Below, piece after piece: positions 3,303 to 64,000 of a stretch of 64,000 nt of DNA (position 1 is the first letter of the stretch; each line of letters opens with the position of its first letter). The notes under the pieces are model-generated. The model was not told the origin of the DNA, made no database searches, and was given only the letters and a program-made list of their open reading frames with translations. This stretch comes from an uncultured delta proteobacterium (lineage in GTDB: Bacteria > Desulfobacterota > Binatia > Binatales > Binataceae), in assembly GCA_963793115.1 (NCBI GenBank), contig CAWBYV010000013.1, forward strand, positions 82,611 through 146,610. The letters are read 5' to 3'. A program made the position numbers and the translations under genes.

Positions 3303-3905
3303 TTGCGAGTTCTGGCCGTGCTCGTTTTGGTGGTCTCGGGCTGCTCTGCGTCCTTCGAGCAAGGGTTCTACCGGCGGGCTCCTGTGAATGATCGACTTCC
3401 ATTAAGCGCAAAAGTGATCGTGGATTCTCCTGGCTCGGTGACGGAAGGCCTGCTCTACACCGTGAATTTCGAACCGGGGTTGTCGGCGGCAGTTAGCAGC
3501 GCGATTGAGGGAGACTTTGTGCCGCCTCGCGCCAGCGGCCCCGATGTGGTGGTTCACGCAGAAGTTAAGGTGATAACCGACCATCAGGGCTTAGACCAGA
3601 TAGAACTCGACGCGATTTTCTCGGACCCGAGGTCGGGCACAAAGATCACAGGTATCGAGCGCTCGAAGGAAGTCGTCTTAGGGCTCCAATCCGGTTTTCG
3701 CGGCATAGCTGATGCCCTCCTGTTGGCAACGGGAGTCGGTATTCCTATCGCGCTCCAGGATATACTCAACGGCGGTAGAGACGAATACGAACAGGTCACC
3801 GACCAGCTTCTGCAGGACGTGTCGGCTGCCGTGCGCGAAGATTATTCGTTGAAGACCTTCGCCGCCGCTAGGTCGAGCGGCGGCCAATACGCCCGGCCCC
3901 GCTGA
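3303..3905 (+). CDS. Putative lipoprotein, unknown function
   Basis: In-frame TTG 3303 gives LRVLAVLVLVVSGC (lipobox). Open to TGA 3905, with a late hydrophobic Gly-rich segment. Confidence 0.55.
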   Translation: MRVLAVLVLVVSGCSASFEQGFYRRAPVNDRLPLSAKVIVDSPGSVTEGLLYTVNFEPGLSAAVSSAIEGDFVPPRASGPDVVVHAEVKVITDHQGLDQIELDAIFSDPRSGTKITGIERSKEVVLGLQSGFRGIADALLLATGVGIPIALQDILNGGRDEYEQVTDQLLQDVSAAVREDYSLKTFAAARSSGGQYARPR

Positions 3906-5620: not shown

Positions 5621-6542
5621 CTATGTCGACGCGATCGCCACGCCGATCCTCTCGGCGCCGAGGAACCAGCCGCTGCGGGCGTTGTAGTAGATGCGTAGCT
5701 CTCGGCCGCTCCGCGCGATATCGAACTGATAGACGAATGCGCGCTTCCACCCGCTCCCTTCCGGCCGGAGGATCGGCTCGGGCCGCACCTGCGTCCATGC
5801 GAAGCCGTCCGCCGACGCGAGGAAAAGGATCGCCGAGCGGCTCGCGCCCGCAGCGTCCCGGTAGATCCCGTTCTCGAGGCCGACGAAGCCATCGCCGTCG
5901 CGGAAGACCTTGATCGCGCCCGCACCGAGGTTGCGATACGGATCGTCGCGCGCGGGCGAGAGGATCGGCTGCGCGCGCTTGCGGAACGGCCCCTCCGGCG
6001 CGTCCCCCTCGGCCACGCCCACGTAACGCGGCTCGATGAACAGGCAATCCCTAAGGAAGACCGCGGAGGCGCTGTAGTAGAGGAGGAAGCCCGATCGCCC
6101 CTCGACGAGGCACGGGTTGCCGGTCGCTGCCGGGATCCGGCCCTCCCACGGCAGGGAGGGCTCAAGAACGGTGCGGGGCGCGCTCCAGGAGACGAGGTCG
6201 CTTGACGTGCGGAGCGCCACGACCGAACGGCGCAAGCTCACGTAGTGCTCGTAGAAGAGCAGAAAGCGGTCGCCGACGCGCCGTACGCAGGGCCGCATCC
6301 CCCCGCAGAGAGCGCGGCTCCCGCGCGTCCAGGCGAAGCCGTCCGCGCTCGTGAGGTGGATTCCGTCCGAGGCCATTCGCGAACAGGTGCCAGCGCTCGT
6401 CCGGCGTTGACTCCGGGGGAAGCACCGTGGGGTCCGCGATGATCCACCCGGGCCAGTGCGGTTCGATGAGCGGATTGCCGGGGTGGTCGCGAAACGCGCT
6501 CCACTCTGGCGATGGCGTGTATGCGCTCGCGAACGCTGTCAC
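5621..6542 (-). CDS. Five-bladed beta-propeller glycoside hydrolase-like protein (GH43/32/130-like; frameshifted)
   Basis: HPGNPLIEP...IADPTVL, GNPCLV, LLYYSA, RPEPILRP, LRIYYNA...ERIGVA repeat blades. Join near 6380. Confidence 0.7.
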
Positions 6543-6742: not shown

Positions 6743-7445
6743 ATGGACACTCCAGCGCGCGGGCTTGCTCTGGTCTTCGACGCCGATGACACGCTGTGGG
6801 ACTCGAATATCCACTTTCTCGAGGCCGAGCAGGCGTTCGTCGATGCGTTGCGCGAGGCGGGGGTGGAAACCGATGCCGCGCGCGTGCGGATGGCGGTCCG
6901 CCGATGCGAGTCCGATATCATCCGCAGCCACGGCTATGGGCGGCGGCCTTATGCGATCGCACTCCAGCGCGTGGCCGATGAGTTGGCGGCGGCGGATCAG
7001 CGCGAGCGCATCCAGGTAATCGTTGCGGAGATCGGCGAGCATCTCAGCAATCGCCATTGCGAGTTGCTGCCGGATGTCGCCGCGACGCTTGCCGAGCTTG
7101 CCACGCGCCATCGCCTGCTGCTCTTCACCAAGGAAGCGCGGCGAGCAAATCCGCAAGCTGGAGCGTTCGGGACTCGCCCGCCACTTCAGCGCGGTAGAAG
7201 TCGCGGCCGAAAAAAACGTCGCCGCCTACCGGACGCTGATCGTAACGGCCGGGCTCGATCCGGCATATAGCTTTATGATTGGCAACAGTCCCCGCTCCGA
7301 TATTAACCCCGCAATCAAGGCGGGGCTGCGCGCGGTCTTCATCCCGCATCCGCACACCTGGGAGCGCGAGCACGAGGAAATCGACCTGAGCGACGCGCGG
7401 ATTGTTTCGATAGCAAGCTTCCTTGGCCTGCTGGATATGTTCTAA
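6743..7445 (+). CDS. HAD-superfamily hydrolase (frameshifted ~7130)
   Basis: Motif I FDADDTLWD, motif IV MIGNSPRSDINPA. Confidence 0.88.
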
Positions 7446-11965: not shown

Positions 11966-14469
11966 ATGAGGCTTACCTCGCCGGTAATCTACTTGCTAAT
12001 CGCCCTGGCAGGCATATCACCGGCAAATATATTACTGGCCAGCAACGCCGTGGCGCAGCCGTCCGCTGCAATGCTTCCCAACCAGGTCGCCGCGGTTTCG
12101 AGTCTGGTCACGGAATCCTGCACCGCGACTGCCGGAAATCCGGTGCTCGCCTGTGGCGCGACCGGCGATTTCGCGGTCGGGCAACCGACCTTCGCGCCGC
12201 TCGCCGCGGCGCCGAATACCTTGAACGCGGGGAACGGCGCCGGTGTCGGCCCGACGATCAGCGCGATCAATTACGTACGGCTTCCAGGCGGCGCCGGCGC
12301 GAAGAGCGGCTCGTCAACCTACTGTTACGCAATCACGACCTTCGACGGCCGCCTCGCCGAGAGCGCGCCCGGGCCGACGCGCTGCACCGGCGCGACCGAG
12401 CCCTCTCGACTTGGCGGCAATCAGTCCGAGCAGCCGGTATGGCCGATAGTCCCTGGCGCGACTCAGTACGGAATCTACGGATGTTCGGGCTCAGGCTGCA
12501 CACCACACCAGATCGGCACCTCGCTACAGATGACGGGGCTCACGGTATCGAGTGTCCTGAGCACTGGCTGGGAGGACTTCGGGCTGCCGGCCAGCACGCG
12601 CACCGCGCCGGGGACCGCTCTCAACGGTGTGCTCTATGCGACCGTCATCGGCATCACGCCGAATGTGAGTATCACGGTCAGCAACCCGCCTGCGATCAGC
12701 GGCTCGCTGAGTATCGCCCACGAAAATTGCGGCCCGATCAACACGACCCTGACTTCCTACTCCCCGCTGGGCGGAACGCTTTCATTGGTATCCGGCCCCT
12801 ATAGCTGCGCGCGGTTGCTCGACATCCCGGATGAAACCACACTTGCGGGGCAAGGCTGCTCGTATACCCAGTATCCCCAGAGCAACGGCAACAGTCCGGG
12901 TTACAACCACGGCCCTTCAATTATCTGGGGCGGCCCTGACGGTGTCATCACGGCGCGTGAGTGGACCGGCGAGAACGAGCACTCCGACTGCATCAACTAC
13001 AATGCGAACACGGTGAACCTGACGGCAACCGCGTCGGCTGCGATCACGCAGATGGTCGTCGATGCCGACGATCTTCCTCCTCCGGCGCCGGGAGGAAAGC
13101 TGGGTGGAAATAACTTTGCCCGCGTCCAGGGCGGTTTCTACGGCGGCTACGTGGAGTGCGGGCCGGCGGCAACGTCACGATCAACGGCTCATTTCCGCAA
13201 ACCGATGTCAGCAACCCTACCTTCAAGAACCTGGTGTTTTATAGCGCAAGCCCAAGCTATGAGATGGAGATATTGTCGGCTCAGGGCGGCTGGCAGAACG
13301 AGATCGATCACGCAACTTTCCTGGGGGGTGCCCAAGGCTTAGATACCGAGAACGCCGCCGGGGGCATCGAGGTTGATAACTCCGACTTCAGTTGTCCTGG
13401 CGGCGGCAACGCGATTCGGCTCGACTCCGGCGCGATGACCATAATCAGGAACACGACCGTTCAGGGTTCCTGCACCTGGAACCTGCTGACTGCCTCAACA
13501 TCGGCTCCTAATTCTGATCAGAACGCAGTAGCACTTCTGGAGGGCAATACATTCATCGGCTCAGGAGGTATCAAGCTCGACGCGCCGGGTCTGGTACTAT
13601 CCATTGGCAACTTCGGTCAAAACTCGCTCTGGGAGACCGACTCGCCACAAGCCACGGTCCTAAGCCTTGGCGACAACAACCCTGGGCCTGCCAGCGTGGG
13701 GAATCAGTCGTTGTCCCCTTGGACGACGGATTCCAAGGGCGGCTCGGTAATTTATCTCAAAAATCTTGTGAGCGCCATAAATTTTGCGCTCAACCCAAAC
13801 CGGATCGAAATCGATCCGTCGTTGCAGACGATGGGTATATTTGGTGCGGCAATCGACTTCATGCCGTGGTCAGCCGGGGCTGGTTATCGCCAGCCGTTTC
13901 GAATCGCAGTAGACTACAGCAGTACTCCGAATACCCTCTCGATTATTCCCGGCTCACAGCAGCTAGTAGACTGGCAGCCCAACCACTCTTACAACACCGC
14001 ATGTATCACACCAAGGTATGCGGGGACCTCCAACGGTCTTTATGTGTGGTGCGAGGCCGGGCCATGCGTCAGCGCCAGCCTTGCGAACGCGCAGCCATGG
14101 AATGGCTTAACCGTAACTGAAGGCACCTGCACCTGGACAAATCGGGGACAGATCTTCCCGGCTGGCAGGGGTAACGGCTTGGTCCTCTCGAACACCGGCC
14201 TCTACCAGGATGGCGGCGCAGTCAAGCACGGCACCGTCACGACCGGCGCGATCGAGGCGAGCTCGACCGCGACCGTGACGCTGAATTGGACCACTGCCTT
14301 TCCCGATACCAACTACACGCCGGATTGCTCCGTGATCGATACCGGAGGCAATCTCACGCTGGTCGATATCAACGGATGGAGCGCCGGCTCGCTCACCGCG
14401 GCGGTGAAGAATAACGATAGCGGCAACCGGCACACCGGCACGCTCGCCTGTCACGCCTTCCATAACTGA
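11966..14469 (+). CDS. Large secreted protein, tailspike/right-handed beta-helix-like (frameshift ~13155)
   Basis: Sec-type signal MRLTSPVIYLLIALAG. Pectate_lyase_3-like GGTLSLVSGPY...DIPDETTLAGQG, Asn/Gly-rich beta-helix-like rungs, WQPNHSY motif, C-terminal VTLNWTTAFPDTNY tail-fibre/H-lectin-like domain. Confidence 0.55.
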
Positions 14470-27762: not shown

Positions 27763-27768
27763 CCGCTC

Positions 27769-29192
27769 ATGCGCGAATACGGCACCATAATCGGGGGCGA
27801 GCAAAGGCCCGGCGCAGGGTGGATCGAAGTGCGCAACCCGTTCAGCGGCGAAGTGGTCGGGCGCGTGGCGGCCGCCGATCGCGCCACCACGCTCGCCGTC
27901 GTGGAGCGGACCCGTGCGGCGAAGATCGCGCTCTCGCGCCACGAGCGGCACGATCTTCTGAACCGGATCGCGGCCCGGCTCGAAAGCGACGCCAGCGCGG
28001 CGAGCCGGCTCATCACAGACGAAGCGGGACTCTGCCTCAAAGACACCAGATACGAGGTCGCGCGCGCCTCCAACGTCCTCCGCTTCGCGGCGATCCAGAC
28101 GCTGCTCGACGACTCCGAAGTTTTCCCGTGCGACGTCTCCAGTCCGGCCGGCCACGCCGGATCTACACGATGCGCCAGCCGTTGGGGCTGATCGCGGCGA
28201 TCACTCCGTTCAACCATCCGCTCAACCAGGTGGTTCACAAAATCGCGCCGGCGATCGCGACCAACAACACCACCGTGCTCAAGCCGTCGCTGCTCACTCC
28301 GATGGCGGCCTACTACATCGTGCAGCTTGCGCTTGAGTGCGGGATGCCGCGCGACATGATCAACGTGATCTCCGGCCCCACGCAGGAAGTGGCCGAGCCG
28401 CTGGTCGCGAGCGAGCTGGTTGACATGGTCACGTTCACCGGCAGCGCGGCGGTCGGCAAGCGGATACTCTCGATCGCGGGCTACAAACGGGTCGTGCTGG
28501 AATTGGGCGGCAGCTCCGCGATGCTGGTGCTGGCCGACGCCGACCCCAGTTTCGCCGCAGATATCGCGATCGCCGGCATCTTCAAAAACAGCGGTCAGCG
28601 ATGCACCGCGATTCGCCGCTTGCTGGTTCACGAGTCGATCGCGGACCAGTTCGCGCGGACGCTCGCCGAAAAAACCTCCGCGCTCCGGTACGGCGATCCC
28701 TACGACCCGGCCACCGATGTCGGAACGGTAATCAGCGAAGCGACGGCGCGCGAGATCGAGACTCGCGTCGGGGATTCGCTCGCGCGCGGCGCGAAGCTGC
28801 TCGTTGGCCATCGCCGCTCGGGCGCGGTTTACGCCCCGACCGTCCTGGATTTCGTCCGCAACGATCATCCACTGGTCGCATGCGAGACCTTCGGGCCGGT
28901 GGCGCCGATCATCCGGTTCGCGACCCTCGATGAAGCAATCCGGATCGCGAATGACACGCCGTTCGGCCTCTCCGGTGCGGTGGTGTCGAATCATTGGCCT
29001 TCGATTCAGCGCGTGATCACGGAACTCGAGACCGGCACGGTCAACGTGAACGAAGCGCCGAGCTACCGGCTCGAATGGTCGCCGTTTGGCGGAATCAAAT
29101 CGTCGGGCCTTGGCTACAAGGAGGGCGTGATCGACGCGATAAAGAGCATGACCTATGTGAAGACCTATTCCCTGCCCTGGGATCAGCCGTAA
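27769..29192 (+). CDS. phnY: Phosphonoacetaldehyde dehydrogenase (frameshift ~28150)
   Basis: ITPFNHPLNQVVHKIAPA, FTGS, LELGG, SGQRCTA, ETFGP, GIKSSGLGYKEGV. Directly after phnA. Confidence 0.88.
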
Positions 29193-41611: not shown

Positions 41612-42637
41612 ATGCTCCGCAAGCTTGGCGTAACGTTGGGACTGTTCGCGATCGCGCTCGCGGGTGCGGTCAACTACTACTTCGTGTCGCCGACGCCGGC
41701 GTTCTCGCCGCCGCGAATCGTGTCGATCCGCAAGGGCGAGTCGCTGCGGAGAATCGCGCGCGATCTGGCCGACAATGGAATTATAAGGAGTCCCGTGCCG
41801 CTGCTCCTGTGGGCGAAGCTGAGCGGCGGGGCGGCGCACGTGCAGCCGGGTGATTACGCCTTCGCAGGCGGCGAGGGCGTCGCTGACGTGATGCGCCATC
41901 TGGTCAGCGGCGATTTCATGACGGTCAGCGTGACGATCGCGGAAGGTCTCACGGTCCATCAGATTGCCGAGCGGCTCGAACAGGCCGGCCTGGTCTGCGA
42001 CAGCCGCTTCGAGGACGCCGCGCGCCACGGAGCGCTGGTCGCAGCGCTGGGCCTGGGGCCGCTGGGCGCGGAAGGCTATCTGTTTCCGGCTACCTATCGA
42101 TTCTCGCCGCTGGCGACAACCGATACCATCCTGGCTACGATGCTCGCCCGCTTTTACGAGATTCTGACCCCGGCGGTCGAGGAGCAGATGTTCAGGCTGG
42201 GACTCGACGCACGCGAACTGGTCACGCTCGCCTCGATAGTCGAGAAGGAAGCCAAGGTCTCCGGCGAGCGGCCGCTGATCGCCGGCGTGTTCTACAACCG
42301 GTTGAGGCTCAAGATGCCGCTTCAATCCGATCCCACCGCTCAGTATAGTCTGGAGGGTGAGAATTCGCGGGCGGCGACCGCCGTGCACACCCCTTCGGCC
42401 TTCAACACCTATATGATCTCGGGTCTGCCTCCCGGCCCGATCGCTAACCCCGGCTTGAACTCGATACGCGCGGCGCTCTATCCGGTCGCAACCGACTATC
42501 TCTATTTCGTCGCGCGCAACGACGGCAGGCACGTGTTCTCGCGATCGTTCGCCGAGCATCAGAGAGCGATCGCCGCCATCGTCGCGGCGAACCGGGATCT
42601 CCGAGCCGGGGCGCCGCCGCGTGCTCATACGCAATGA
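41612..42637 (+). CDS. mltG: Endolytic transglycosylase
   Basis: EGYLFPATY, LASIVEKE, LQSDPT, NTY...GLPPGPIANPG, YLYFV. Confidence 0.95.
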   Translation: MLRKLGVTLGLFAIALAGAVNYYFVSPTPAFSPPRIVSIRKGESLRRIARDLADNGIIRSPVPLLLWAKLSGGAAHVQPGDYAFAGGEGVADVMRHLVSGDFMTVSVTIAEGLTVHQIAERLEQAGLVCDSRFEDAARHGALVAALGLGPLGAEGYLFPATYRFSPLATTDTILATMLARFYEILTPAVEEQMFRLGLDARELVTLASIVEKEAKVSGERPLIAGVFYNRLRLKMPLQSDPTAQYSLEGENSRAATAVHTPSAFNTYMISGLPPGPIANPGLNSIRAALYPVATDYLYFVARNDGRHVFSRSFAEHQRAIAAIVAANRDLRAGAPPRAHTQ

Positions 42638-44145
42638 TATCCCCGGAGCCAAGCCCGGTTGAGCTAATCGCTGGCGCCCGTTCGCGCCTGGCGCTGATCG
42701 CCGCGACCCGCGCGCTGATCTACGGACTCGCGCCCGCGCTAACGGCTTTCGCGATAGCTCCGGCGCTTGCGCCGATAAACGAATGGGCGGGCTTGCGCTT
42801 GGGCTACGAGCTTGCGCCGGCGGCACTGATCGATTTGCGTATCGGTCTGGTCGCCGCCGGGCTTATCGCGCTCGTGCTCGGCGGCGCATCGGCCGCGCTG
42901 GCGTGGCGGCGGGCGCACGATTTCATATCCGCCGCCGAGCGGGTCGATTCGATCGTGAACGCACGCCAGGAAATCCTGACGCTCGCTACGCTTACCGATC
43001 CTTCGCGGCCTTCGGCCGATCCTGCCCGGTCCTCCGGCGCGAACCGGCCCGCGCTGTTCCCGATCCTGTGGCAGCGCGCTTGCACTTACCTCGCGAATTT
43101 CTCGCCGGCGCGCGCGTTCCGCTTCGACCTTGGGCGTCCGCTGATGCGCGGTTCCGCGCTGTCGCTCGCGATCGTAGCGGTGCTGGCCGTGGCGATAATG
43201 GCGCTGGCTCGGCCGCCGTCGCCCGAGGCGGCTCAGGCGCGCAGACTTCGCGAGATGGCGCGCGCGATCGAAGGCGCGTCACCAACCGAGTCGGGCCGGG
43301 CCCTGGCCAGGGCGCTGCGCGACACCGCGACCGCACTCGAAAATCCGAAACTGCCGCCCGAGCAGAAGCTCAAAGTCCTCGCCGAGGTGACCAACGATAT
43401 CCAGCGTATCAAGCCGCCTAATTCAGCGCAGACCGGAAAGCCTCATGACAAGTCCGCCAAAGGCAACTCGGGCGGCAAGGGAAACTCGGGCAACGGCGGC
43501 GAGGGCGCAGGATCGGGGGCAAGCAAGGGCACGGGCGCCAACAACGCCGAGGCGAAGGGATCCGGCACGGGGAAAAACAACGACCAGCAGATGGCCGCGC
43601 TGGAGAAAGAGTTGTCGCAGGCCAAAGAGCGGATCGAGAACGAATCAGCCCCGGCTGACAAGTCGATGCCGAAGGCGGCGGAGGGCGGAAATAACGGTAA
43701 CGCCGTCGCGCCGGGACAGAATCCCAATCAGCCGGGCTCTGCGAACCGGCCCGACGATTCGGCACAGAACCAGCGCCCCAAGCCCGCCGAGAACGCGCCG
43801 CCCAGCGACAAGTCGGGTGAAGGCGGCGAGAAGACCGCCAACGAGGACAAGGGCTCGACCAAGGGCGACACCCGGCTTGGCCAGTTTCCCGCGCCGGTTC
43901 GGTATGAGAGATTCTACAAGCCGGGCGAGCACGGCCCGCCGATAGAGATCAAGGATGCGCGCTACGTGGTGTTCCGGCTTCCATCGGGCGCAACGCCCGG
44001 CGGCGGCGGTAAAACGGTTCTGGACACCGGACGGCCCGAGGCCAGCACGCCTTACTCGAACGCGCCGCTCAAGGCCGAGCGGCTCGAAGCCTCGCCCGAC
44101 GAACGGCAACTGGTGCCGCCGCGCTATCGCGACTTGATTCAATAG
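42634..44145 (+). CDS. Hypothetical membrane protein with coiled coil and Gly/Asn-rich tail (MoxR-operon associated)
   Basis: 3 TM segments, helical region, low-complexity linker, C-terminal VPPRYRDLI motif. ATGA overlap with mltG. Confidence 0.75.
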   Translation: MISPEPSPVELIAGARSRLALIAATRALIYGLAPALTAFAIAPALAPINEWAGLRLGYELAPAALIDLRIGLVAAGLIALVLGGASAALAWRRAHDFISAAERVDSIVNARQEILTLATLTDPSRPSADPARSSGANRPALFPILWQRACTYLANFSPARAFRFDLGRPLMRGSALSLAIVAVLAVAIMALARPPSPEAAQARRLREMARAIEGASPTESGRALARALRDTATALENPKLPPEQKLKVLAEVTNDIQRIKPPNSAQTGKPHDKSAKGNSGGKGNSGNGGEGAGSGASKGTGANNAEAKGSGTGKNNDQQMAALEKELSQAKERIENESAPADKSMPKAAEGGNNGNAVAPGQNPNQPGSANRPDDSAQNQRPKPAENAPPSDKSGEGGEKTANEDKGSTKGDTRLGQFPAPVRYERFYKPGEHGPPIEIKDARYVVFRLPSGATPGGGGKTVLDTGRPEASTPYSNAPLKAERLEASPDERQLVPPRYRDLIQ

Positions 44146-44195: not shown

Positions 44196-45215
44196 ATGGG
44201 AGCGGCTGCCAAGACATCTGCCGACCAGCGCGTGGCCGAATTTCGCGACGTGTTCACCCGCGCCGAAGCCGAGGTGGGCCGCGTGATCGTCGGTCATCAG
44301 GCGGCCGTGCGCAAAGTCCTGACCGCGTTGTTTTGCGGCGGCCATGTGCTGATCGAAGGCGTGCCCGGACTGGGAAAGACCCTGATGGTCAAGACCGCGG
44401 CCGAAGCGCTGGGGCTGAGCTTCAAGCGTATCCAGTTCACGCCCGACCTGATGCCGTCCGATATCGTCGGCACCCAGATCCTTACCGAGGTCGAGGGCCG
44501 CCGCGAGTTCCAGTTCAAGGCCGGACCCATTTTCGCCCACATCGTCCTAGGTGACGAGGTCAACCGCGCCACGCCCAAGACTCAATCGGCGCTGCTCGAA
44601 GCGATGGAGGAGCGGCAAGTCACCGTGCTCGGTACGACCTACCGGCTCGAGCCGCCCTTCTTCGTGCTCGCCACGCAAAACCCGATCGAGCTGGAAGGGA
44701 CCTATCCGCTGCCCGAGGCGCAGATGGATCGCTTCCTGTTCAAGGTCGTGATCGGTTCGCCCAAACCCGAAGAATTGCGCGAGATACTCGATCGCACGAC
44801 CGGCGCGAGAGTATACCGGGTCCAACCGATCTTCGATCCGGCCCATGCGCCCGCGACGATCGAGCGGCTCAAGGATCTGGTCCGCGAAGTAATCGTGGCG
44901 GAACCGCTGGAGCGCTATGTGATCGGGATCATCGCGGCCTGCACGCCGGGCGGTCCCGGCGCGCTGCCGGAGATCTCGCAGTACCTGCGCTTTGGGCCGA
45001 GTCCACGCGGCGCGCAGGCGCTGATCCTGTGCGCCAAGGTCAGCGCCCTGATGCAGGGCCGGGTAAGCGTCAGTTACGAAGACGTCGACGACGCGCTGGT
45101 GCCCTCGCTGCGCCATCGGTTGCTGCGCAACTTCCAGGCCGAGGCCGAGAACGTCACGACCGAATCGCTGCTCGATCAGGTGAGCAAGCGCGTGAAGCGC
45201 CCGGGACGGGGGTAG
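44196..45215 (+). CDS. MoxR family AAA+ ATPase
   Basis: GVPGLGKT, RIQFTPDLMPSD, DEVNRATPKTQSALLEAM, ATQNPIELEGTYPLPEAQMDRF. Confidence 0.96.
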   Translation: MGAAAKTSADQRVAEFRDVFTRAEAEVGRVIVGHQAAVRKVLTALFCGGHVLIEGVPGLGKTLMVKTAAEALGLSFKRIQFTPDLMPSDIVGTQILTEVEGRREFQFKAGPIFAHIVLGDEVNRATPKTQSALLEAMEERQVTVLGTTYRLEPPFFVLATQNPIELEGTYPLPEAQMDRFLFKVVIGSPKPEELREILDRTTGARVYRVQPIFDPAHAPATIERLKDLVREVIVAEPLERYVIGIIAACTPGGPGALPEISQYLRFGPSPRGAQALILCAKVSALMQGRVSVSYEDVDDALVPSLRHRLLRNFQAEAENVTTESLLDQVSKRVKRPGRG

Positions 45216-45266
45216 CGCAGCGAACCCTCGCCCTGCCGCCTAAGCGTGGTGCGGTAGGGTTCCGAG

Positions 45267-46675
45267 GTGATGGGACAACCGATGCCTGCTAGTCCGTTCG
45301 TCTTCATCAGCTACTCGCAGACCGACGCGGAGTCTGCGGCTGAATTGGCTTCGCGGTTCAAAACGGCAGAAATTCGCCACTTCAGGGACGAAGAGTCTAT
45401 AGACTGGGGCGAAGACATACCGGACAGAATTCACAAAGCCCTAAGACTCGCGACCCACCTGGTCGTACTCATCTCTCCCGGCAGCGAGAAGTCGCAGTGG
45501 GTAGCCTATGAGGTGGGTTTCGCCAAGGCACGTGAAGTGATCTTGGTCCCCTATCTACTTCACCCAGCAATGCCAGCCTGCCGGGCTTCATCAGTTCCAA
45601 GAAATACCTCAAGAGGGGAGAGGAAGGAGAATTCGTCGCGAGATTGAGGCGGCGGACAAACGGTTTGCGTAAGCGCGAAGACCCAGCTCGGAACGAGAGG
45701 CACAGCGAGCTGGCAATCAGGCAGGCCGTACGGAAGTTGCGAAATCCGAGTCCGCTGGTGCGAGAAGAGGCTGCGGGAGCTCTGATCGAACGGCAAGCCA
45801 GCACTGAACTGCTTGAGGCGCTGCGAGATCCAAAAATTGAGGTGCGGGAGGCTGCAGCGAAAGGCTGCTCCTCTCTCGCGCTGGCCGACGCCTTGCCACA
45901 CCTCGTCGCTGGAATGCGCAACCTCGGCCTGAAGAAGGGCCCGTTGATCCCGCACGCAGAGGACCGGCTGAGACCCTACGGCCGGAAGGCGGTCGCCGCG
46001 TTGTTAACCGAGCTTCCGGAAGATGAAGCCGAAAGAGCCCGGTGGATTGAGGCACTAAACCAGATCGTCGTCAACGACCAGACCGCGAAGATGGTTCTGG
46101 CCGCGATCCAACCGGCTCCCAGCGAGAGGGTATGGCTGTTGGAGCCTATACTTCGCAGCAGGTCCAGCGTGATTTCGGAGCGGAAAATTGCTTCTCTCGT
46201 CAAGGAATACCCGGTGAGCCGAGGGCTATACAACGTCGATTTGAAGCCGTGCGAAAACCTGTTCACTTGCGTGGCGGAGTCTCCTTACCGCAGGTCCATA
46301 CCAGTCCGCAGTGCTCTCAAGGAGGCCTTGGGGAAAACGGACAGATTAATAAACTTGCAGAGCAATCTTTCCGGACAGGCGAGAAAATGCGCCGAGATCG
46401 CCCTGAACGCCGGCATTTTTACGCCAGATGACTTGAACGAGATATCCGAGCAAGCGCGAGGCCATCGGTTGAGCATGGCGCTGCAGGATTTGGTCGAGGA
46501 AGGGCGCGCGCCCGGTCCGCGCAAGCCTCGACGGGGCCACGGCCAGGAGGGCCTCGAAGGCGCGGGCTCCAACGCGCTCAGGCGACGTAGAAGGCGGCGT
46601 AGAAAAAGGGCGGCTAAAAGTCTCTCTGTCGGTCCCTCACCCCAACCCTCTCCCGTCCAGCGGGAGAGGGCTTGA
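45267..46675 (+). CDS. TIR domain-HEAT repeat protein (one frameshift ~45575)
   Basis: VFISYS...SQWVAYEVGFA TIR motif with catalytic Glu. A +1 shift continues as LPGFISSKKYL into LRNPSPLVREEAAGAL and LRDPKIEVREAAAKG HEAT repeats. Confidence 0.75.
46634..46670. repeat. REP-like palindromic unit CCCTCACCCCAACCCTCTCCCG-N-CGGGAGAGGG
   Basis: At the 3' end of the TIR-HEAT ORF, just before the DUF58 gene. Confidence 0.8.
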
Positions 46676-46699
46676 AGAGGAATCGCTGACTCGAATTCC

Positions 46700-47599
46700 A
46701 TGCTCAACCTCCCCCCTGAATTCACGCCCGACTTCATGGCCCGGCTCGAGCAACTGCGGCTCAAGACCCGCCGCGAGTACGCCGGGATGGGCAAGGGCGG
46801 CCATCTCTCGCCCCGGCGCGGCACCTCGCTCGAGTTCAGCGACTTTCGCCCTTACTCGCTCGGCGACGACTTCCGCTATATCGATTGGGGACTTTACGGC
46901 CGCACCGACAAATTGTATATAAAGCTCTTCAAGGAGGAGGAAGACCTTCTCACTTACATCTTCGTCAACGCGAGCGCCTCGATGGCGTATCCGGCCGGCG
47001 ACCGCAAGTTCTCCTCCGCGATCGCGATCGCGCTGGCGCTGGCTTACGTTGCGCTTTCCTCGGGCGATCGCGTCATGATCAGGGTGCTCGCCGGCGAAGG
47101 CGAGTCGGCGCCGCCGAGCTTCGTGAAGGATCGCTTCCGAATCGTCGATCTCGCGCGGCGTCTCAGCACGATCAGGCCCGCCGGTTCGCTCGATCTGGCT
47201 TCAACCCTCGCGCGCGAGATGGTCGCGATCCGGCGCGCGGGCAAAGTCTTCGTGATCTCGGACTACCTGATGCTGCTCAACTCGGTCACCAGGGGACTCA
47301 GCCTCTTCAGCGCCGCCAACATGGACGTGACTGCCGTGCAGGTGCTCGGCGGCGGAGAGTCGGGCGGCCAGGGACTCGACGGCGACGTTGATTTGGTCGA
47401 CTCGGAAAGCGGCGAGCATCTGCGCGTCGCGCTGGGGCCGCGCGAGCGCGAGCGCTACCGGCAGACGCTGCTCCGGCTATCGCGCGAGATTCGCGCTTTC
47501 TGCTTCAAGAACGGCCAGCACTACACGCTGTATACGACCGAGCGGAGCTTTCACGACTACTTCCTGCGCGCCGTGAGCGAGCTGGGCTTGGTGCATTAG
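46700..47599 (+). CDS. DUF58 domain protein
   Basis: GTSLEFSDFRPYSLGDDFRYIDW..YGRTDKLYIKLF, ASASM, VISD. Confidence 0.93.
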   Translation: MLNLPPEFTPDFMARLEQLRLKTRREYAGMGKGGHLSPRRGTSLEFSDFRPYSLGDDFRYIDWGLYGRTDKLYIKLFKEEEDLLTYIFVNASASMAYPAGDRKFSSAIAIALALAYVALSSGDRVMIRVLAGEGESAPPSFVKDRFRIVDLARRLSTIRPAGSLDLASTLAREMVAIRRAGKVFVISDYLMLLNSVTRGLSLFSAANMDVTAVQVLGGGESGGQGLDGDVDLVDSESGEHLRVALGPRERERYRQTLLRLSREIRAFCFKNGQHYTLYTTERSFHDYFLRAVSELGLVH

Positions 47600-53717: not shown

Positions 53718-53937
53718 CTTGGCTTCCTCCTGCCCTACACTCGAAATTCTACTCTATACCGGCGGGTTACTTAACCCCGATCCGAAAATAAGCCGACAAC
53801 GGAATCGCCATGCGCCTTGCGATACGGGCCAATGCTGACAGCGCTTCGGCCGCTGCGCCATACGCGGGGCCGATTCCTGTCCCGGCTGCGAACGGCTAAG
53901 ATTGAAAGTTTGACGCTCACGGAATGCGGTCAATCCA

Positions 53938-55948
53938 GTGCTCGCGCTCGATAATCTATCCAAGTCGTTCGGCGGACGAGTCATCCTCGATTCCGTAAGC
54001 TGGACAATGGCCGACGACGGGCGGGTCGGATTGGTCGGCCTCAACGGCGCGGGCAAATCGACCCTGCTCAAGATGATCGCCGGCGTGGTCGGGCCCGACT
54101 CCGGCCGTATCATGCGGCCGCAGCGCACGACGGTCGGCTACCTGCCGCAGGACGCACCCGAGATGGGCGGCCGCCCGGTGCTGGAGGAAACGCTCTCGGC
54201 GCTGGCCGAGATGCAGGCATACGACGCGCGCCGTATCGAGCTGGAGAAAATCCTCGCTGCGGAGCCTTCGGGACCGGCTCACGATGCTGCCCTGGCGGAG
54301 TTCGGCGAGGTGCTCGACCGAGCTCGAGCGCCACGAGTTCTACAACGCGGACAGCCTCGCGACTGCGGTGCTGTTCGGCCTGGGCTTCAAGCAGCAAGAC
54401 CTCGGGCGCGATGTAGCCGAGTTCTCGGGCGGCATCCGGATGCGCGTCGCGCTGGCTAAGCTCCTGCTCCGGCGGCCGGAATTCCTGCTGCTGGACGAGC
54501 CGACCAACCATCTCGACCTCGAGGCGCGCACCTGGCTCGAGGATTACCTCGCCTCCTACCCGGGCGGAATCATACTGGTCTCGCACGACCGATACTTTCT
54601 CGATCGGGTGACCAAAACCACGGTCGAAGTCGCGCGCGGCAGGCTGGCCGAGTATCAGGGCGGCTACTCGCGCTATCTGATCGAGCGCGAAAAGCGCTTC
54701 GCGCTCGAGTTGGCCGCGTACGAGAAGCAGCGCGAAGAGATCGCGCACATCGAGTCCTTCATCAGCCGCTTCCGCTACCAGGCGAGCAAGGCGCGGCTGG
54801 TCCAGAGCCGGATCAAGCAGCTTGAAAAGATCGAACGCCTGCAGCCGCCGGTGGGCGCCGACAAGCCGCCCGCGATCAGGTTCCCCGAATGCGAGCGCAG
54901 CGGGCGGCGGGTCTTCGAGCTCAAGCACGCGGTCAAGCGCTACGGCGCGCTCACCGTGTACGACGGCGTCGATATGGCGATCGAGCGCGGCGCGCGCGTC
55001 GCGCTGGTCGGTCCGAACGGCTCGGGAAAATCGACCATGATGAGGCTGCTCGCGGGAGTCGATTCGCTCACCGCCGGCGAGCGAATCGTCGGACATAATG
55101 TCAGGATCGGCTACTTTGCGCAGGATCTCGCCGAGACTCTCGATTATCAACGGACCGTGCTCGACGAGCTGAGCGACGCGGCCGAGGGCATGACCACCCA
55201 CGAAATCCGTGGCCTGCTCGGCGCGATGCTGTTCTCGGGCGACAACGTCGGCAAGCGCGCCGGCGTGCTCTCGGGCGGCGAGCGCGCGCGGCTGTCGCTG
55301 GCCAAGGTGCTGGCGCATCGCAACAACTGCCTGCTGCTCGACGAGCCGACCAACAACCTCGATATCATCGCCAAGGAGACGCTGCTCGAAGCGCTGCGGC
55401 GATTCGCCGGCACGGTCGTGATCGTGAGTCACGATCGCTACATCCTGAACGAACTCGTCACCGAGGTAATCGAGGTCGGCCGCGGACATGCGACGCGCTA
55501 TCTCGGGAACTACGACGAGTACCTGGCCAAGACCCAGGCGATCGAAATTGCCGCGGCCGCTGCCGCGGCGAGCGCGGCCTCACCACTTGACGGAAAAGCC
55601 GCCAAGATGGCGAAGGCGGCGCTGGGCGCGGCGAACGATCGCGCCCGGCACGACGGTAAAGCCGGCGCCGTATCGGCAGGCAAGCCGGATCGCGCGCGCC
55701 AGCCGGATCGAGATCGAAAGCGCACTCCCAACACGCGCCGGCGCGCAGCGCTGGAGTCCGACATCGAGCGCATGGAAGCCGAGCGCGCAGCGCTGGCCGC
55801 AGAGATGAACGACCCCGACTTCTACCTGGCACGCAAGGACGCCGACCAGATGATCGCGCGTCACGAGCGCCTCGGCCGCGAGGTCGAGCAGCTCTACTCC
55901 GACCTGGTCGAGTTGAGCGACTCGCCGGCGGCGCGCGATGAAACCTAG
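53938..55948 (+). CDS. ABC-F family ATP-binding protein (frameshift ~54320)
   Basis: Two NBDs (GLNGAGKST, FSGG, LLDEPTNHLD; GPNGSGKST, LSGGE, LLDEPTNNLD), no TM helices, C-terminal coiled coil. Confidence 0.93.
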
Positions 55949-55953
55949 CGCCG

Positions 55954-57697
55954 CTACGTGCCGGTTCCGCTGACCGTCACCGATTGCGAAAGGTTCGCGG
56001 GATCGTCGCTCTTGATCGTGATCGTGCCGCTGAACGGCGTACCAGACGACGTGCCGGAAGTCGGCGTGAACTTCACTTTGACGACCCGCTTTGCCCCGCC
56101 GCTCAGAGTGAAAGCGCCTCCGCCCTGGAGCAACTGGAAAGCCTTCTTGAATCCGCTCGCGACCACCTTACCGTGCAACACGCCGAGCCCGGTGTTCTGA
56201 ATCATAAGGGTCTGCGCTTGGCTATGGTGCACGGCTACGCTGCCGAAGCTGAGCGTTGCGGGCGCGCTCATGGTTCCGGACTGTGCCGATCCGGTCACCA
56301 CGACGGTCACCGGGGCGGAGGAGTTGTTCGCCGCGACGTTCAGATTGCCCCCGAAGGTGCCGGCCGACGAGGGCGTGAACCATATCTTGACGGTCTTGGT
56401 GCGACTGCGTGGCAGCCTGAATGAGCCTGCTCCCTTTACCTTGAATGCGCCGGTTTCCAGCACCGCACTCGCGTCCACATTGACCAGCAAGGTGACGGAT
56501 CCGGAATTGCCAATCGTGATGGGCACCGTCTTGGATTTCGTGCCAGTGCCGGTGAGTGGGAAGGCGATCGAGCCGGTCGAGACCGAAAGCCCTATCGGAG
56601 TGGGCCCGGCAGTCGGGGTGGGGGTGGGCGTGGGGGTGGGGGTGGGGGTGGGCGTCGCAGACGGCTCCGGGGTCGCATTGCTTGCCGCGACCGCGATGCC
56701 GGCGGGCTTGGAAAGCGCCGATCCCGAGAGCGTCACGATCGGCGGCGCATTTCCGTTGTCACCGGCCGCGTATTCCGTAACCGTGTTCGAGGCGAAGTTC
56801 GCCGCGTAGATGTTGCCGAACTGGTCGACCGCGACTCCGTAGGGCTGGCTCAGACCGGTCTGCTCACCCGAAATCGTCGCGATCGGCGGCACGTTGCCGT
56901 TGGAACCGGCCGCGTACTCGGTGATGCTGTCGGCGCCCCCGATGCTCGACGCGATGTTCGACACGTAGATGTTGCCGGCCGAGTCGAGCGCGATTCCCAC
57001 CGGCGTGTTGAGCCCGGTCTGGGCGCCCGAGATCAGCGCGGCCTGGCGCGACGTTGCCGCTACTATTTGGCTCAAATTCCGTCACAGCAAATTCCGTCAC
57101 TGTCGACGACTGCGTGTTGGCTACGTAGATGTTGCCCGACCGGTCGATCGCGATCCCGCTCGGCTCCATCAGCCGCGTCAATGGACCGCTGATCGTGCTG
57201 GTGGGCCCGATGTTGTGGTTGGCGCCGGCTATGTATTCGGTGACGCTGTTGATGCTGGTGTTCCGGTTGGTGACGTAGATATTCCCCGAGGGATCGAGCG
57301 CGACGCCGAACGGCAGGGCGAAGTTGGTGTTCGATCCCGAGATCACGGCAGTTGGAGCCGCTGATCCCGTCGCGGTCGAAGTGTACTCGGTGACGCTCGG
57401 GCCGAAGACATTTGCCACGAAGATGTCGCCGAACGAATCCACGAACAGCCCGATAGGAGCGCTCAACTGGGTCTCCGCGCCGGTGATGGTGCCCGCGCTC
57501 GCGAGGCCGGAGCTTCCCGCCGGGTAGATCGCGATCGAGCTCGAGCCCTCGTTCGCCACGTAGATCGTCACCGCCGTTCCCTCCACAGCCGACGGCGATG
57601 ATTCACCACCGCTTGCGAGGCCGGTTGCCATCGCCATAGCAATCGCGAAAAGAAGCAGCGGAACAAGCCCCGCCATGCTGGTGTTGCGTCTCGCCAC
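55954..57697 (-). CDS. Secreted NHL-repeat + PT linker + two ASH/choice-of-anchor-D (Ig-like) domain protein (frameshift ~57040)
   Basis: Signal peptide, repeats GNVAP...ISG..T.L..P.GIA.D..GNIYV.N, PTPTPT linker, C-terminal SDDP..L...V.V.GTG. Confidence 0.8.
56613..56655 (-). repeat. Hexamer tandem repeat (GGGGTG on +) encoding the Pro-Thr linker
   Basis: About 7 units, G-run rich. Confidence 0.8.
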
Positions 57698-57706
57698 CGG
57701 GGCCCG

Positions 57707-61322: not shown

Positions 61323-61492
61323 TCTCTATGCGCCGCAGGCGAGGATGTCAAGCCGAGGACCGCCCGCAATAGCGGCCAGCCGCGTGCTGTCGTTTCAAGG
61401 AAGCGAGAATATAGTGATCCGGGCCCGTTAATTCTCGCGCGAAGCGGATTGCGCCCGATTAGCGACGCTCGCGCGAGCCGGGTCAACCCACG

Positions 61493-62831
61493 ATGGGAGA
61501 CGTGGCAACCAGCGGCGTCGCGCTCGGGCTCTTCAGCGGCCTCGTGCTGCTCGGGCTAGTTGCCGCCTCGCTCGCGCTGTGCTTGCAGCCGCTGTTTCGC
61601 GCGCGAGATCTGCAAGCCGCGCGCGCGATGCTCTGGCTGCTGGCGATTGCGATCGGCAAGTTTGCGCTGCTGCCTTCCTTCCCCGGCTACTGGGAAGACG
61701 TGCGATGCTGGAACCTGTGGTCCGCCGCGATGGCGTATGCCAGGCCCGGCCCGCATCTACGAGCCGCAATTCCTGTGCGACTATCCGCCCGGCTACCTCT
61801 ACGTCCTGTGGCCGGCCGGATGGATCACGCGCGCGCTCGGACTCCAATCGTTCGACACGATTCGGCTGGTCACCGAGAGTCCGCCGCTGATCGTGGACTT
61901 CATAATAGGTCTCGCGATCTTCGCCACGATCCGGCGCCTCGGCGCCGCGCGCTCCGCCTTTGCCGGGATGCTGCTCTTCGCGCTCAATCCCGCTCTGTTG
62001 TTCGACACGCTGGCATGGGGCCAGAGCGATTCGGTGCTCGCGCTGCCGATCCTGCTGAGCGCGATGCTCGCCGCCGACGCGCGCTACGATCTGGCCTGGG
62101 CGATGGCCGCGATCGCCGTGCTGGTCAAACCGCAGGGACTGGTGTTGCTGCCGCTACTGGGCCTGTGGACGCTGCTGCGCGCAACGCCCGGCGACTGGGT
62201 CGGCGCGGCGGCCGCGTTCGTGGGCGTGATGATGATCGGAATCGTGCCCTTTCAGATCGGCCATCGATGGAACTTCATCGCCGAGATCTACTTCTCCGCC
62301 GCCGGGCGCTACCCAACTACTTCCGACAATGCATTCAACCTGATGGGGCTGTTGGGCGGGCTCCGGGAACCGGAATCGACGCCGATCGCCGGCATATCGG
62401 CGTTCGCGCTTGGGATGACGCTGTTCCTCGGGGTCTATATCGCGGCCGCGTACATCATCTATCGCAGGCGCACGATGCGTGGGTTGCTGCTCTCGATCTT
62501 TATCGCCTACCTCGCGATGTTCGTGCTGGCGCCGCGAATTCACGAACGCTACCTGTATCCCGCGCTCGCGATTCTCATTCCGCTCGCGCTCGAATCGCCG
62601 GTTACGCTGGCGATATTCGCCGCCCTGAGCGGCACCTTTCTGCTCAACCTGGCTTGGGTGAAGCGCTACCACGAGCACGCGCTGGCGCTCGATCCGAACA
62701 GCCGGCTGGCCGGCGCCGCCGCCCTGATCAATCTGGCGGCGCTGGTTGCCGGGTTGACCTACGGCCTGATCGCCTCGATGCGCGGGGATGATCAGCTTGC
62801 GGGCGATCCGATCAGTGCCCGACGCCGCTGA
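61493..62831 (+). CDS. GT-C type membrane glycosyltransferase (GT87/Alg6-8-like; frameshift ~61740)
   Basis: DYPPGYLY, FALNPA, WGQSDS, KPQ, HERYLYP; many TM helices. Confidence 0.8.
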
Positions 62832-64000
62832 GCGACACGCTAAGCGGGACCGAGCTTGCGGTGTCGCCCATCGTCAGCGAGCCCGTGAGCGCACCTGCCA
62901 CCGTCGGCTTGAACGCGATCGCAATCGTGCACGTCGCATGTGCACTGACTCCGCTGGCGCAGCCGTTGCTCGTAATCGCAAAGTCGCCGCCGACGAAGAA
63001 GTTGTTAAACGACAGTGGCGCGCCAAGATTGTTGGCGACCCTCACCTGCTTCGACGCGCTGGTGGTATTCACCTTCTGATTCCCGAACGAAAGCTTAGTC
63101 GGCGAGACCGTGGCCGCGAGGATGCCGGATCCGTTCAGCGACACCTTCTGCGCGTGCGAGGCCACGTTGATCAGGAGCGTAGCCCTCTGCGAGCCGGTCG
63201 CGCTCGGCGTGAAGCTGACTCTGATACTGCATGCCGACTGCGGCGCAACTGACGGCACGCAGCTATCGGCCTCGATGAAGCCGGACTGCGAGGTCTTCGA
63301 GTTGCTGCTGATCGCGATGCTCGCGACCTTGAGCGCAGCACGGCTGTTGTTGGCAAGCACGATGGTCAGAGGCGAGCTGCTGCTTCCGATCGGCTGCGGC
63401 CCAAAAGACAACGACAACGGCGACAGACTCCAGGCCAGGCGGGGCGGTGCTGCCACGCACCGTGACCGCCGCGCTGCTGCTGTTGGCAGCGCAGGCCGGC
63501 GTCCCGCCGAAGAAGGCCTCTACCGGCAGGACTTCGGCGGTCCCGGGCGCGATAAAGCTGGCGCTTGCCACGCCGCTCAAGTTCGTAATCCCGGTATTGG
63601 TCGCGCCGTTGAAGGCAAACGTTACGTTCTGGCCCAGAGCGCAACTCTTCGGACCCAGCGTTGCAGTCGCTTTGAAGAATCTTGCGGTCTGAGCGCCAAC
63701 ATTGGCTACCGTCAGGGTGGTCGGGCCGGGCGGCGTCACGGTGACTTGGGCAGTGGTGCTGCTGGGAAGGCATCCAGGGCTTGGGCTGGGACTGCCCTCG
63801 AAAGCGGCCTGGATCGAGTAGCTTCCCGGGATGCTTGGCGCGATGAACCTGGCCGTCGCGACGGCGTTGGAGCCCGCCGACGCTACTACCTGCACACTCT
63901 GAGTAGGGAAGGTAAAGATTACTCCCTGACCAGTCCCGCAGGAGGCCGGCTTCAGTTTCGCCGAGACGGTGAACGATGCGCCACCCGGCGCCGCGACGTT
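62812..64000 (-). CDS. Large secreted Ig-like repeat + ASH domain protein (5' end outside window; frameshift ~63430)
   Basis: Repeats TLTVANV...VTFAFNG...GVASASFIAP...A.F.G...C..S...VTV, then two LSFG.Q...C.I...F.P...G..T..L domains. Confidence 0.75.

Follow-up and report, generated by a model that had tools for sequence, protein, structure and literature searches.

The genes moxR and DUF58 are core genes of the Binataceae, present in 149 and 147, respectively, of the 151 genomes of the family that formed our comparison set. In the 64,000-nucleotide stretch of DNA analyzed here (hereafter the window; positions 82611-146610 of contig C13), the two genes are separated by a gene encoding a TIR domain at the N-terminus and HEAT repeats at the C-terminus, referred to here as TIR-HEAT, which is co-directional with both and located exactly between them (Table 1). 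An initial annotation, made from the sequence alone, had placed TIR-HEAT between moxR and DUF58, and every element that it described was found at the positions given there. The window belongs to a metagenome-assembled genome (MAG) of 4.16 Mb in 31 contigs with an estimated completeness of 75.8%. This genome, G000, is one of five in the genus g1, together with G068, G034, G008 and G053, and G004 represents the nearest (sister) genus.

Table 1. Features of the moxR-DUF58 locus, in window coordinates.
Feature	Position	Strand	Evidence
moxR (AAA_3 MoxR-type ATPase, left flank)	44196-45215	+	AAA_3 E 1.7e-63, AAA_lid_2
9-bp stem with one G-U pair and 11-nt loop, just past moxR stop	45231-45259	+	fold z -2.0
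TIR_2 part of TIR-HEAT gene, frame 0	45282-45572	+	Pfam, homologue alignment
Interval with single -1 frame change	45573-45577	+	alignment to single-frame homologues
Linker and HEAT-repeat all-alpha solenoid body, frame -1	45578-46480	+	HEAT/HEAT_2, AF2, Foldseek
Arg-rich C-terminal tail, about 55 aa past homologues' ends	46481-46675	+	alignment
REP-like dispersed palindromic element	46623-46676	.	repeat copies, fold z -5.3
DUF58 (vWA-like MoxR partner, right flank)	46700-47599	+	Pfam DUF58 E 6.3e-31

The first open reading frame (ORF), at 45267-45647, opens at a GTG codon at 45267, and the ATG codon at 45282 is the likely start, with which the N-terminus resembles those of the homologues. Its product scores 61.2 bits for TIR_2 (PF13676; cut-off 28, E = 1.8e-16), and is also above the cut-offs for ThsB_TIR (30.7 bits, cut-off 21.2) and TIR (26.9 bits). 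Positions 45498-45518 encode the motif WVAYEVG, the Glu of which is specified by the codon at 45510-45512, and the first five residues align with the W-T-x-Y-E motif that is found in AbTir and BtTir, two NADases that are also the best sequence matches in the PDB. The annotated TIR domain with a catalytic-type Glu is supported by the TIR_2 match and by this alignment, and the Glu is invariant in 12 full-length TIR-HEAT homologues and at least 90% conserved in 35 sequences with the same TIR subtype. The second ORF, at 45644-46675, is in the -1 frame, which is open from 45536, and both HEAT (28.6 bits, cut-off 23.5) and HEAT_2 (28.0 bits, cut-off 27.7) score above their cut-offs, in agreement with the HEAT repeats annotated in the second frame.

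The two ORFs align colinearly, end to end, with single-frame TIR_2+HEAT_2 proteins of about 400 amino acids (aa), and we therefore consider them to be one gene rather than two, with a read-through product of about 463 aa. Frame 0 still includes the conserved Met of the motif LLHP[SA]M, while the conserved LPGF is encoded in the -1 frame, which places the lone frame change within 45573-45577; the colinear alignment thereby sustains the earlier proposal that a single indel joins the TIR and HEAT parts. At least nine of ten homologues agree in 71 alignment columns; the window gene, read in both frames, has the identical residue in 60 of these and a conservative change in the remaining 11. The atypical codon usage noted before was likewise recovered, with a GC content at third codon positions (GC3) of 0.61 in the TIR part and 0.69 in the HEAT part, as compared to 0.83 in moxR and 0.85 in DUF58. 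The Arg-rich tail reads through a palindrome that resembles repetitive extragenic palindromic (REP) elements, to the TGA codon at 46673-46675.

The fold was examined with an AlphaFold2 (AF2) model of the intact homologue P0002 (397 aa), which is 42-45% identical to the window gene, rather than of the window's own allele, and the model was compared with known structures using Foldseek. The model (pLDDT 91.1, pTM 0.71) consists of a TIR alpha/beta domain at residues 1-128, followed by an all-alpha solenoid of about 18 helices at residues 132-393. The TIR matches were to SARM1, SPARTA TIR-APAZ, AbTir, BtpA and SpbK, with target-normalized TM-scores (TMt) of about 0.55-0.75 for single-domain TIR chains and 0.27 for SPARTA TIR-APAZ, a chain of 419 residues, and the C-terminal matches were to alphaRep and AP2 HEAT-like folds. 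As modeled through this homologue, the protein has the flavodoxin-like fold of TIR domains and, with marginal Pfam matches, a HEAT-repeat solenoid, and this solenoid body is the presumed sensor.

Proteins of this architecture are rare. A profile search of 5.8 billion clusters yielded about 18 full-length TIR_2+HEAT proteins, including intact single-frame homologues from metagenomes such as P0002 and the 401-aa proteins P0004 and P0005. A pattern scan of the GTDB species representatives recovered no relative, and no orthologue was found among the 150 other Binataceae genomes searched, aside from a remnant in G068 that is described below. The foreign GC3 and the lack of orthologues in the family and in the GTDB representatives together indicate that the gene was acquired. 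Furthermore, a literature search found no paper on a TIR_2-HEAT protein.

The site of the insertion is normally closed. In the 138 genomes that carry moxR and DUF58 on one contig, the gap between the two genes is at most 50 bp in 120 (mode about 12) and 51-300 bp in another 12, as expected if the two genes are normally adjacent, which was also the premise of the initial annotation. A gap of more than 1 kb was observed in six genomes only, namely the five genomes of genus g1 and G004, and the content of these six inserts, as assigned by Pfam and PADLOC, is variable. The insert in the window genome (1487 bp) consists of TIR-HEAT, while that of G068 (1308 bp) holds a 3' remnant of the TIR-HEAT gene, a ribbon-helix-helix (RHH) gene and a mazF-like remnant. 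G034 (4524 bp) encodes PemK/MazF, RHH_1, an N6_N4_Mtase-Mrr_cat fusion and DUF2513; G008 (1200 bp) and G053 (1566 bp) have in common a 350-aa PIN_12 protein, which is split in the latter; and G004 (8460 bp) encodes TumE, a helix-turn-helix (HTH) gene, a 1002-aa PNP_UDP-NB-ARC-TPR protein and an 888-aa transmembrane (TM)-NB-ARC-TPR protein. The proposed insertion into a core operon is thus visible as cargo with foreign codon usage inside a usually tight gene pair, and a synteny comparison, which had been suggested as a check for variable cargo, reveals different defence and toxin-antitoxin genes in close relatives. TIR-HEAT itself is not conserved at the site throughout the relatives, being present in full length only in G000 and as a remnant in G068.

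Since the cargo differs among close relatives, we regard the moxR-DUF58 slot as a lineage-specific hotspot for defence and toxin-antitoxin genes. Its flanks are conserved, its cargo is variable and enriched in defence genes, and the site is empty in more distant genomes, as in other defence hotspots flanked by core genes. It differs from these in that it lies inside a two-gene operon with a spacer of about 10 nt, is active in one genus and one sister genome only, and has received inserts that all lack an integrase or transposase. We infer that exchange of cargo through the conserved flanks is the simplest mechanism.

Several of the inserts have features of their own. In G034 (L027, G034:C2), mazE-mazF is bracketed by two direct copies of a 138-nt segment from the 5' end of DUF58 (2841-2978 and 3607-3744, 88% identical), and this duplication looks like a footprint of cargo entry into the slot. 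The two NB-ARC-TPR proteins of G004 are encoded side by side (L030, G004:C2, 1708-9260) and are candidate defence proteins of the STAND type (signal transduction ATPases that have numerous domains). The 350-aa protein of G008 (L029, G008:C14, 6478-7530) and G053 (L026, G053:C5, 6600-7650) has a weak PIN_12 match of 28.1 bits, below the cut-off of 32, an uncharacterized N-terminal half and no match in PADLOC.

The location of TIR-HEAT, co-directional with and exactly between moxR and DUF58, could also mean that it serves the MoxR-DUF58 chaperone pair as a client or accessory and that the three genes form one unit. MoxR-vWA pairs occur in some conflict systems, and there is a weak match to bpMoxR (E = 4e-8). 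However, moxR and DUF58 are adjacent without a third gene, at gaps of at most 300 bp, in 132 of the 138 genomes, the slots of the congeners hold unrelated cargo, the codon usage of TIR-HEAT is foreign, and its homologues are never located beside moxR or DUF58. A functional link to MoxR-DUF58 is effectively refuted by the synteny and by the contexts of the homologues, and we consider such a role extremely unlikely.

The remnant in G068 provides a view of the history of the gene. It is located in the same place and orientation and is 39% identical over 109 aa (E = 2e-16), but it contains an in-frame TGA codon and a deletion of about 0.8 kb. Its presence in the same slot shows that TIR-HEAT was there before the split of G000 and G068. 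The Arg-rich tail is common to the remnant and the window gene and is therefore ancestral in the genus. During the decay of the G068 copy, that of G000 retained both an open frame and the residues conserved in the family, an argument that it was under purifying selection until recently.

Whether the gene in G000 is still alive depends on how the frame change is interpreted. If it is real, TIR-HEAT is a true pseudogene that is degenerating in this lineage, with the copy in G068 already dead, a reading favored by the break itself, by its position away from any long homopolymer, by the remnant in G068 and the absence of the gene from G008, G053 and G034, and by the 3' end that reads about 55 aa past the ends of the homologues into the REP-like element. 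However, frame breaks are common in this MAG. A codon log-odds scan of the whole assembly gave 876 candidates, a number inflated by antisense shadow ORFs, and 562 frameshift-like junctions once these had been removed, which corresponds to one per 7.4 kb. Nine are inside the window and eight of these look like real breaks when the translations are read by eye. Three were confirmed by Pfam and split core genes, namely those for Aldedh (27766-28188 and 28161-29186, covering profile positions 9-115 and 121-460), an ABC-F ATPase (53923-54456 and 54317-55945) and a HAD hydrolase (6770-7267 and 7134-7442). Likewise, moxR itself is broken in the congener G053.

At this error rate, an intact gene of 1.4 kb has a chance of about 15% of showing one break. 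Given this background, we think it likely that the single frame change in TIR-HEAT is an assembly indel, and as such it provides weak evidence of gene death. Furthermore, the gene has about 460 codons without a stop or a second lesion, its tail is ancestral rather than a new lesion, and its 60 of 71 highly conserved columns contrast with the 39% identity, the stop codon and the 0.8-kb deletion of the G068 copy. That TIR-HEAT is a true pseudogene is consequently unlikely, although it is the least unlikely of the alternatives considered. We also considered a programmed -1 ribosomal frameshift, which was excluded because no X XXY YYZ slippery heptamer is present at 45560-45580 and all homologues are encoded in a single frame. 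Homopolymers were not supported as the cause of the assembly breaks, the mean maximum run being 3.1 at the junctions and 3.2 at control positions. Frameshifts in this MAG should not be taken as pseudogenes, and they may partly explain its low completeness estimate. Single frame changes in the window also split a tailspike-like gene (12034-14466), the gene for a membrane protein (61486-62813) and, on the minus strand, those for proteins with NHL repeats (55959-57703) and Ig-like repeats (62820-64000).

The gene contexts of six homologues were compared and found to be varied and island-like. A phage-type integrase gene adjoins P0008, with Ank, HEAT and TPR-CHAT genes nearby, and an rve transposase gene adjoins P0027 in a variable stretch. 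A second TIR gene and an SLOG-like (LDcluster4) gene lie downstream of P0003, P0012 is located between two ABC_sub_bind paralogues together with an SLFN_AlbA_2 gene, and P0002 stands alone between divergently oriented housekeeping genes. No partner gene is conserved across the six contexts, so that the homologues stand alone, in line with the single-gene architecture of the initial annotation. In other metagenomic proteins (P0017-P0019, P0030-P0044), a TIR domain of the same subtype, with 50-70% identity, is joined to PhoH, DnaB_C/AAA_25, biotin-lipoyl or XRE-HTH domains.

The helical body has a distribution of its own. A search of 1.84 billion representative proteins with the body on its own returned 79 matches at E ≤ 1e-3, of which 13 were at E ≤ 1e-10. 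The body-specific matches P0060 (444 aa) and P0071 (453 aa) carry a DUF4062/NIR head in place of TIR_2, and an alignment of the window body with the complete body of P0060 has 26% identity across 271 aa (E = 3e-17). As judged from these alignments, a homologous helical body has been swapped between TIR_2 and DUF4062/NIR heads. P0060 as a search query recovered three metagenomic clusters only. The gene for P0071 (L041, 2526-3887) lies on the opposite strand within a phage module of baseplate, tail-tube and capsid genes, a position that is typical for a phage-carried defence gene.

This exchange of heads is of interest in relation to Vulcan, a NIR-HEAT protein of Enterobacter roggenkampii that acts alone and, on sensing a phage protein, causes Glu-dependent NAD+ depletion and growth arrest (bioRxiv 10.64898/2026.09.04.749371). 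The NIR domain is the former DUF4062, which was renamed in 2026, shown to be a TIR-like NADase, and placed as a family apart from TIR (bioRxiv 10.64898/2026.09.04.749371); a second DUF4062 system is Swarozyc (bioRxiv 10.64898/2026.05.01.722283). TIR-HEAT resembles Vulcan in being one polypeptide with an N-terminal head of TIR-like fold, a catalytic Glu and C-terminal HEAT repeats, in having no obligatory partner, as none is conserved in the six contexts, and in the homology of its body to those of the small DUF4062-HEAT proteins P0060 and P0071. It differs in its head, which is TIR_2 and has no DUF4062 match at E ≤ 0.1.

A similar arrangement is found in DSR2 of Bacillus subtilis, a single-gene abortive-infection system in which the C-terminal HEAT region binds the phage tail tube and controls the SIR2 head (PMC11263360). 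TIR-HEAT shares with DSR2 the N-terminal NADase-type head and the C-terminal HEAT region, but the head is TIR rather than SIR2 and the protein is about 400-460 aa long, whereas DSR2 is a tetramer-forming protein of about 1005 aa that also contains HTH and helix-bundle domains (PMC11263360). We found no SIR2 domain in TIR-HEAT, no match to DSR2 in sequence or among the PADLOC models, and no DSR2 chain among the 50 best Foldseek matches listed. Since the DUF4062 and SIR2 heads were searched for and not found, we place TIR-HEAT in neither the Vulcan nor the DSR2 family.

The third comparison is with ThsB of the Thoeris system, with which TIR-HEAT has in common the TIR domain, the catalytic-type Glu and a ThsB_TIR match, although ThsB has no HEAT solenoid. 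A functional TIR domain could generate a signal, such as an isomer of cyclic ADP-ribose (ADPR) as in ThsB and AbTir, for an effector that is encoded elsewhere. AbTir and BtTir, the closest sequences in the PDB, make cyclic ADPR isomers, the ThsB_TIR score is above its cut-off, and P0003 has the second TIR gene and the SLOG-like gene next to it. However, no partner is conserved in the six contexts and none is present in the window, and the validated one-protein systems with a head and HEAT repeats deplete NAD+. No ThsA-type effector adjoins the window gene or any homologue examined, in agreement with the initial annotation, which had noted that none is nearby; the flanks are moxR and DUF58. The only SIR2_2 gene in the MAG is on another contig, in a second island with foreign codon usage (G000:C4:497542-500839, GC3 0.62-0.70) that encodes the SIR2_2 protein (497542-498741), a 183-aa ORF and an SMC-like ATPase that carries a Walker A motif at its N-terminus, and this trio resembles Lamassu with a Sir2 effector rather than ThsA. 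The identification as Thoeris was therefore rejected, and we consider a signal-generating role for an effector elsewhere distinctly unlikely.

We consider it probable that the window carries a horizontally acquired TIR_2-HEAT gene of about 463 aa, located in a hotspot slot and encoding a one-protein sensor for abortive infection. The moxR-DUF58 spacer, which has about 10 nt in nearly all Binataceae, has become a cargo hotspot in this genus and one sister genus, where defence and toxin-antitoxin genes are exchanged, probably by recombination via the conserved flanks. TIR-HEAT was already in the slot in the common ancestor of G000 and G068, the latter of which has kept only the decayed 3' end. 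By analogy with Vulcan and DSR2, for which such a mode of action has been demonstrated, we infer NADase activity, phage sensing and a defence phenotype: the solenoid would keep the TIR domain inactive and bind a phage protein, binding would let the TIR domains assemble, and the assembled domains would cleave NAD+, leading to its depletion or to the release of an ADPR-type product.

Several observations weigh against this interpretation. Many bacterial TIR domains produce signaling nucleotides instead of depleting NAD+. The HEAT and HEAT_2 scores barely exceed their cut-offs, no long homopolymer is present at the frame break, and the 55-aa tail translated through a REP element is unusual. The gene has decayed in G068 and been lost in G008, G053 and G034, and is therefore dispensable. 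Moreover, the TIR_2-HEAT family is known from sequences alone, PADLOC has no model for the whole protein and only the TIR part matches generic TIR models, and the homology of the body is established to P0060 and P0071, not to the tested protein of E. roggenkampii.

A functional protein could also serve purposes other than defence against phages, such as the metabolism of NAD+ or nucleotides, regulation, or conflicts among bacteria or mobile elements, as in an addiction module. The slot also carries toxin-antitoxin pairs (mazEF, TumE), which stabilize DNA besides defending, no clear role can be assigned to the fusions of this TIR subtype with PhoH, biotin-lipoyl and XRE domains, and a family known only as sequences leaves room for such a function. 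Yet the slot cargo of the relatives is typical of defence, with the PNP-NB-ARC-TPR protein, the methylase-Mrr fusion and the PIN protein, the body relative P0071 is a moron in a phage structural module, and the architecture matches two validated defence proteins. We therefore regard a function of this kind as very unlikely, and continue to favor the abortive-infection sensor.

More specifically, TIR_2-HEAT proteins of about 400-460 aa may represent an undescribed one-protein anti-phage system, a TIR-headed sibling of Vulcan in which one compact helical sensor body has exchanged its head, and the gene of which has, in this Binataceae genus, long been kept in an integrase-free slot within the moxR-DUF58 operon for the exchange of defence genes, a proposal to which we give slightly less than an even chance. 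If TIR-HEAT is active, the design of an NADase head on a HEAT sensor would extend from SIR2 in DSR2 and NIR in Vulcan to a canonical TIR head. The small size of about 400 aa would make these proteins tractable for structures of a solenoid that gates TIR assembly, and the swap of heads on a homologous body offers a natural experiment in effector modularity. The slot is also a clean example of a defence hotspot that has arisen within a core operon, in an uncultured soil lineage, and can guide the search for further cargo genes, such as those for the 350-aa PIN_12 protein and DUF2513.

The initial annotation had further proposed that TIR-HEAT is a cassette bounded by hairpins, which our data did not support. 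The significance of the hairpins was assessed from fold z-scores against 200 shuffles. The upstream 9-bp stem is present, with arms at 45231-45239 and 45251-45259, but it barely beats chance, as 8 of the 200 shuffles fold equally well. It is not conserved in the congeners, with which homology stops about 10 nt past the moxR stop codon, and is not followed by a T-run; it could represent a weak terminator or belong to the 5' leader of the cargo. The downstream palindrome, with arms at 46646-46655 and 46661-46670, is far stronger and was correctly described as REP-like. Its core, CCTCTCCC-N3-9-GGGAGAGG, is dispersed in 98 copies in the G000 genome, with at least 8 to 13 longer copies of the element. 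G000 and G053, the cargo of which differs, have in common this element as well as the 22 nt that immediately precede the DUF58 ATG codon, and we therefore assign the element to the DUF58-side flank rather than to the cargo. A dispersed element in the flank and an unconserved stem near chance level do not delimit a cassette, and attC-like cassette ends were rejected on the same grounds. A scan of 44900-47000 for promoters and terminators gave nothing that exceeds the shuffled expectation.

Upstream of moxR, the window encodes a 503-aa protein (42634-44145) with TM segments and a long low-complexity middle part rich in Gly, Ser, Asn and Lys. It has no Pfam match but is conserved in the congeners, and is a possible third component of the MoxR-DUF58 unit. 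Finally, a second type of short repeat, the translation of which reads ...GLRFFASLRMT..., is located just 3' of moxR in G053 (L026, about 6445-6540) and G034 (L027, about 6900-6945), which indicates that the slot also gathers miniature repeats.

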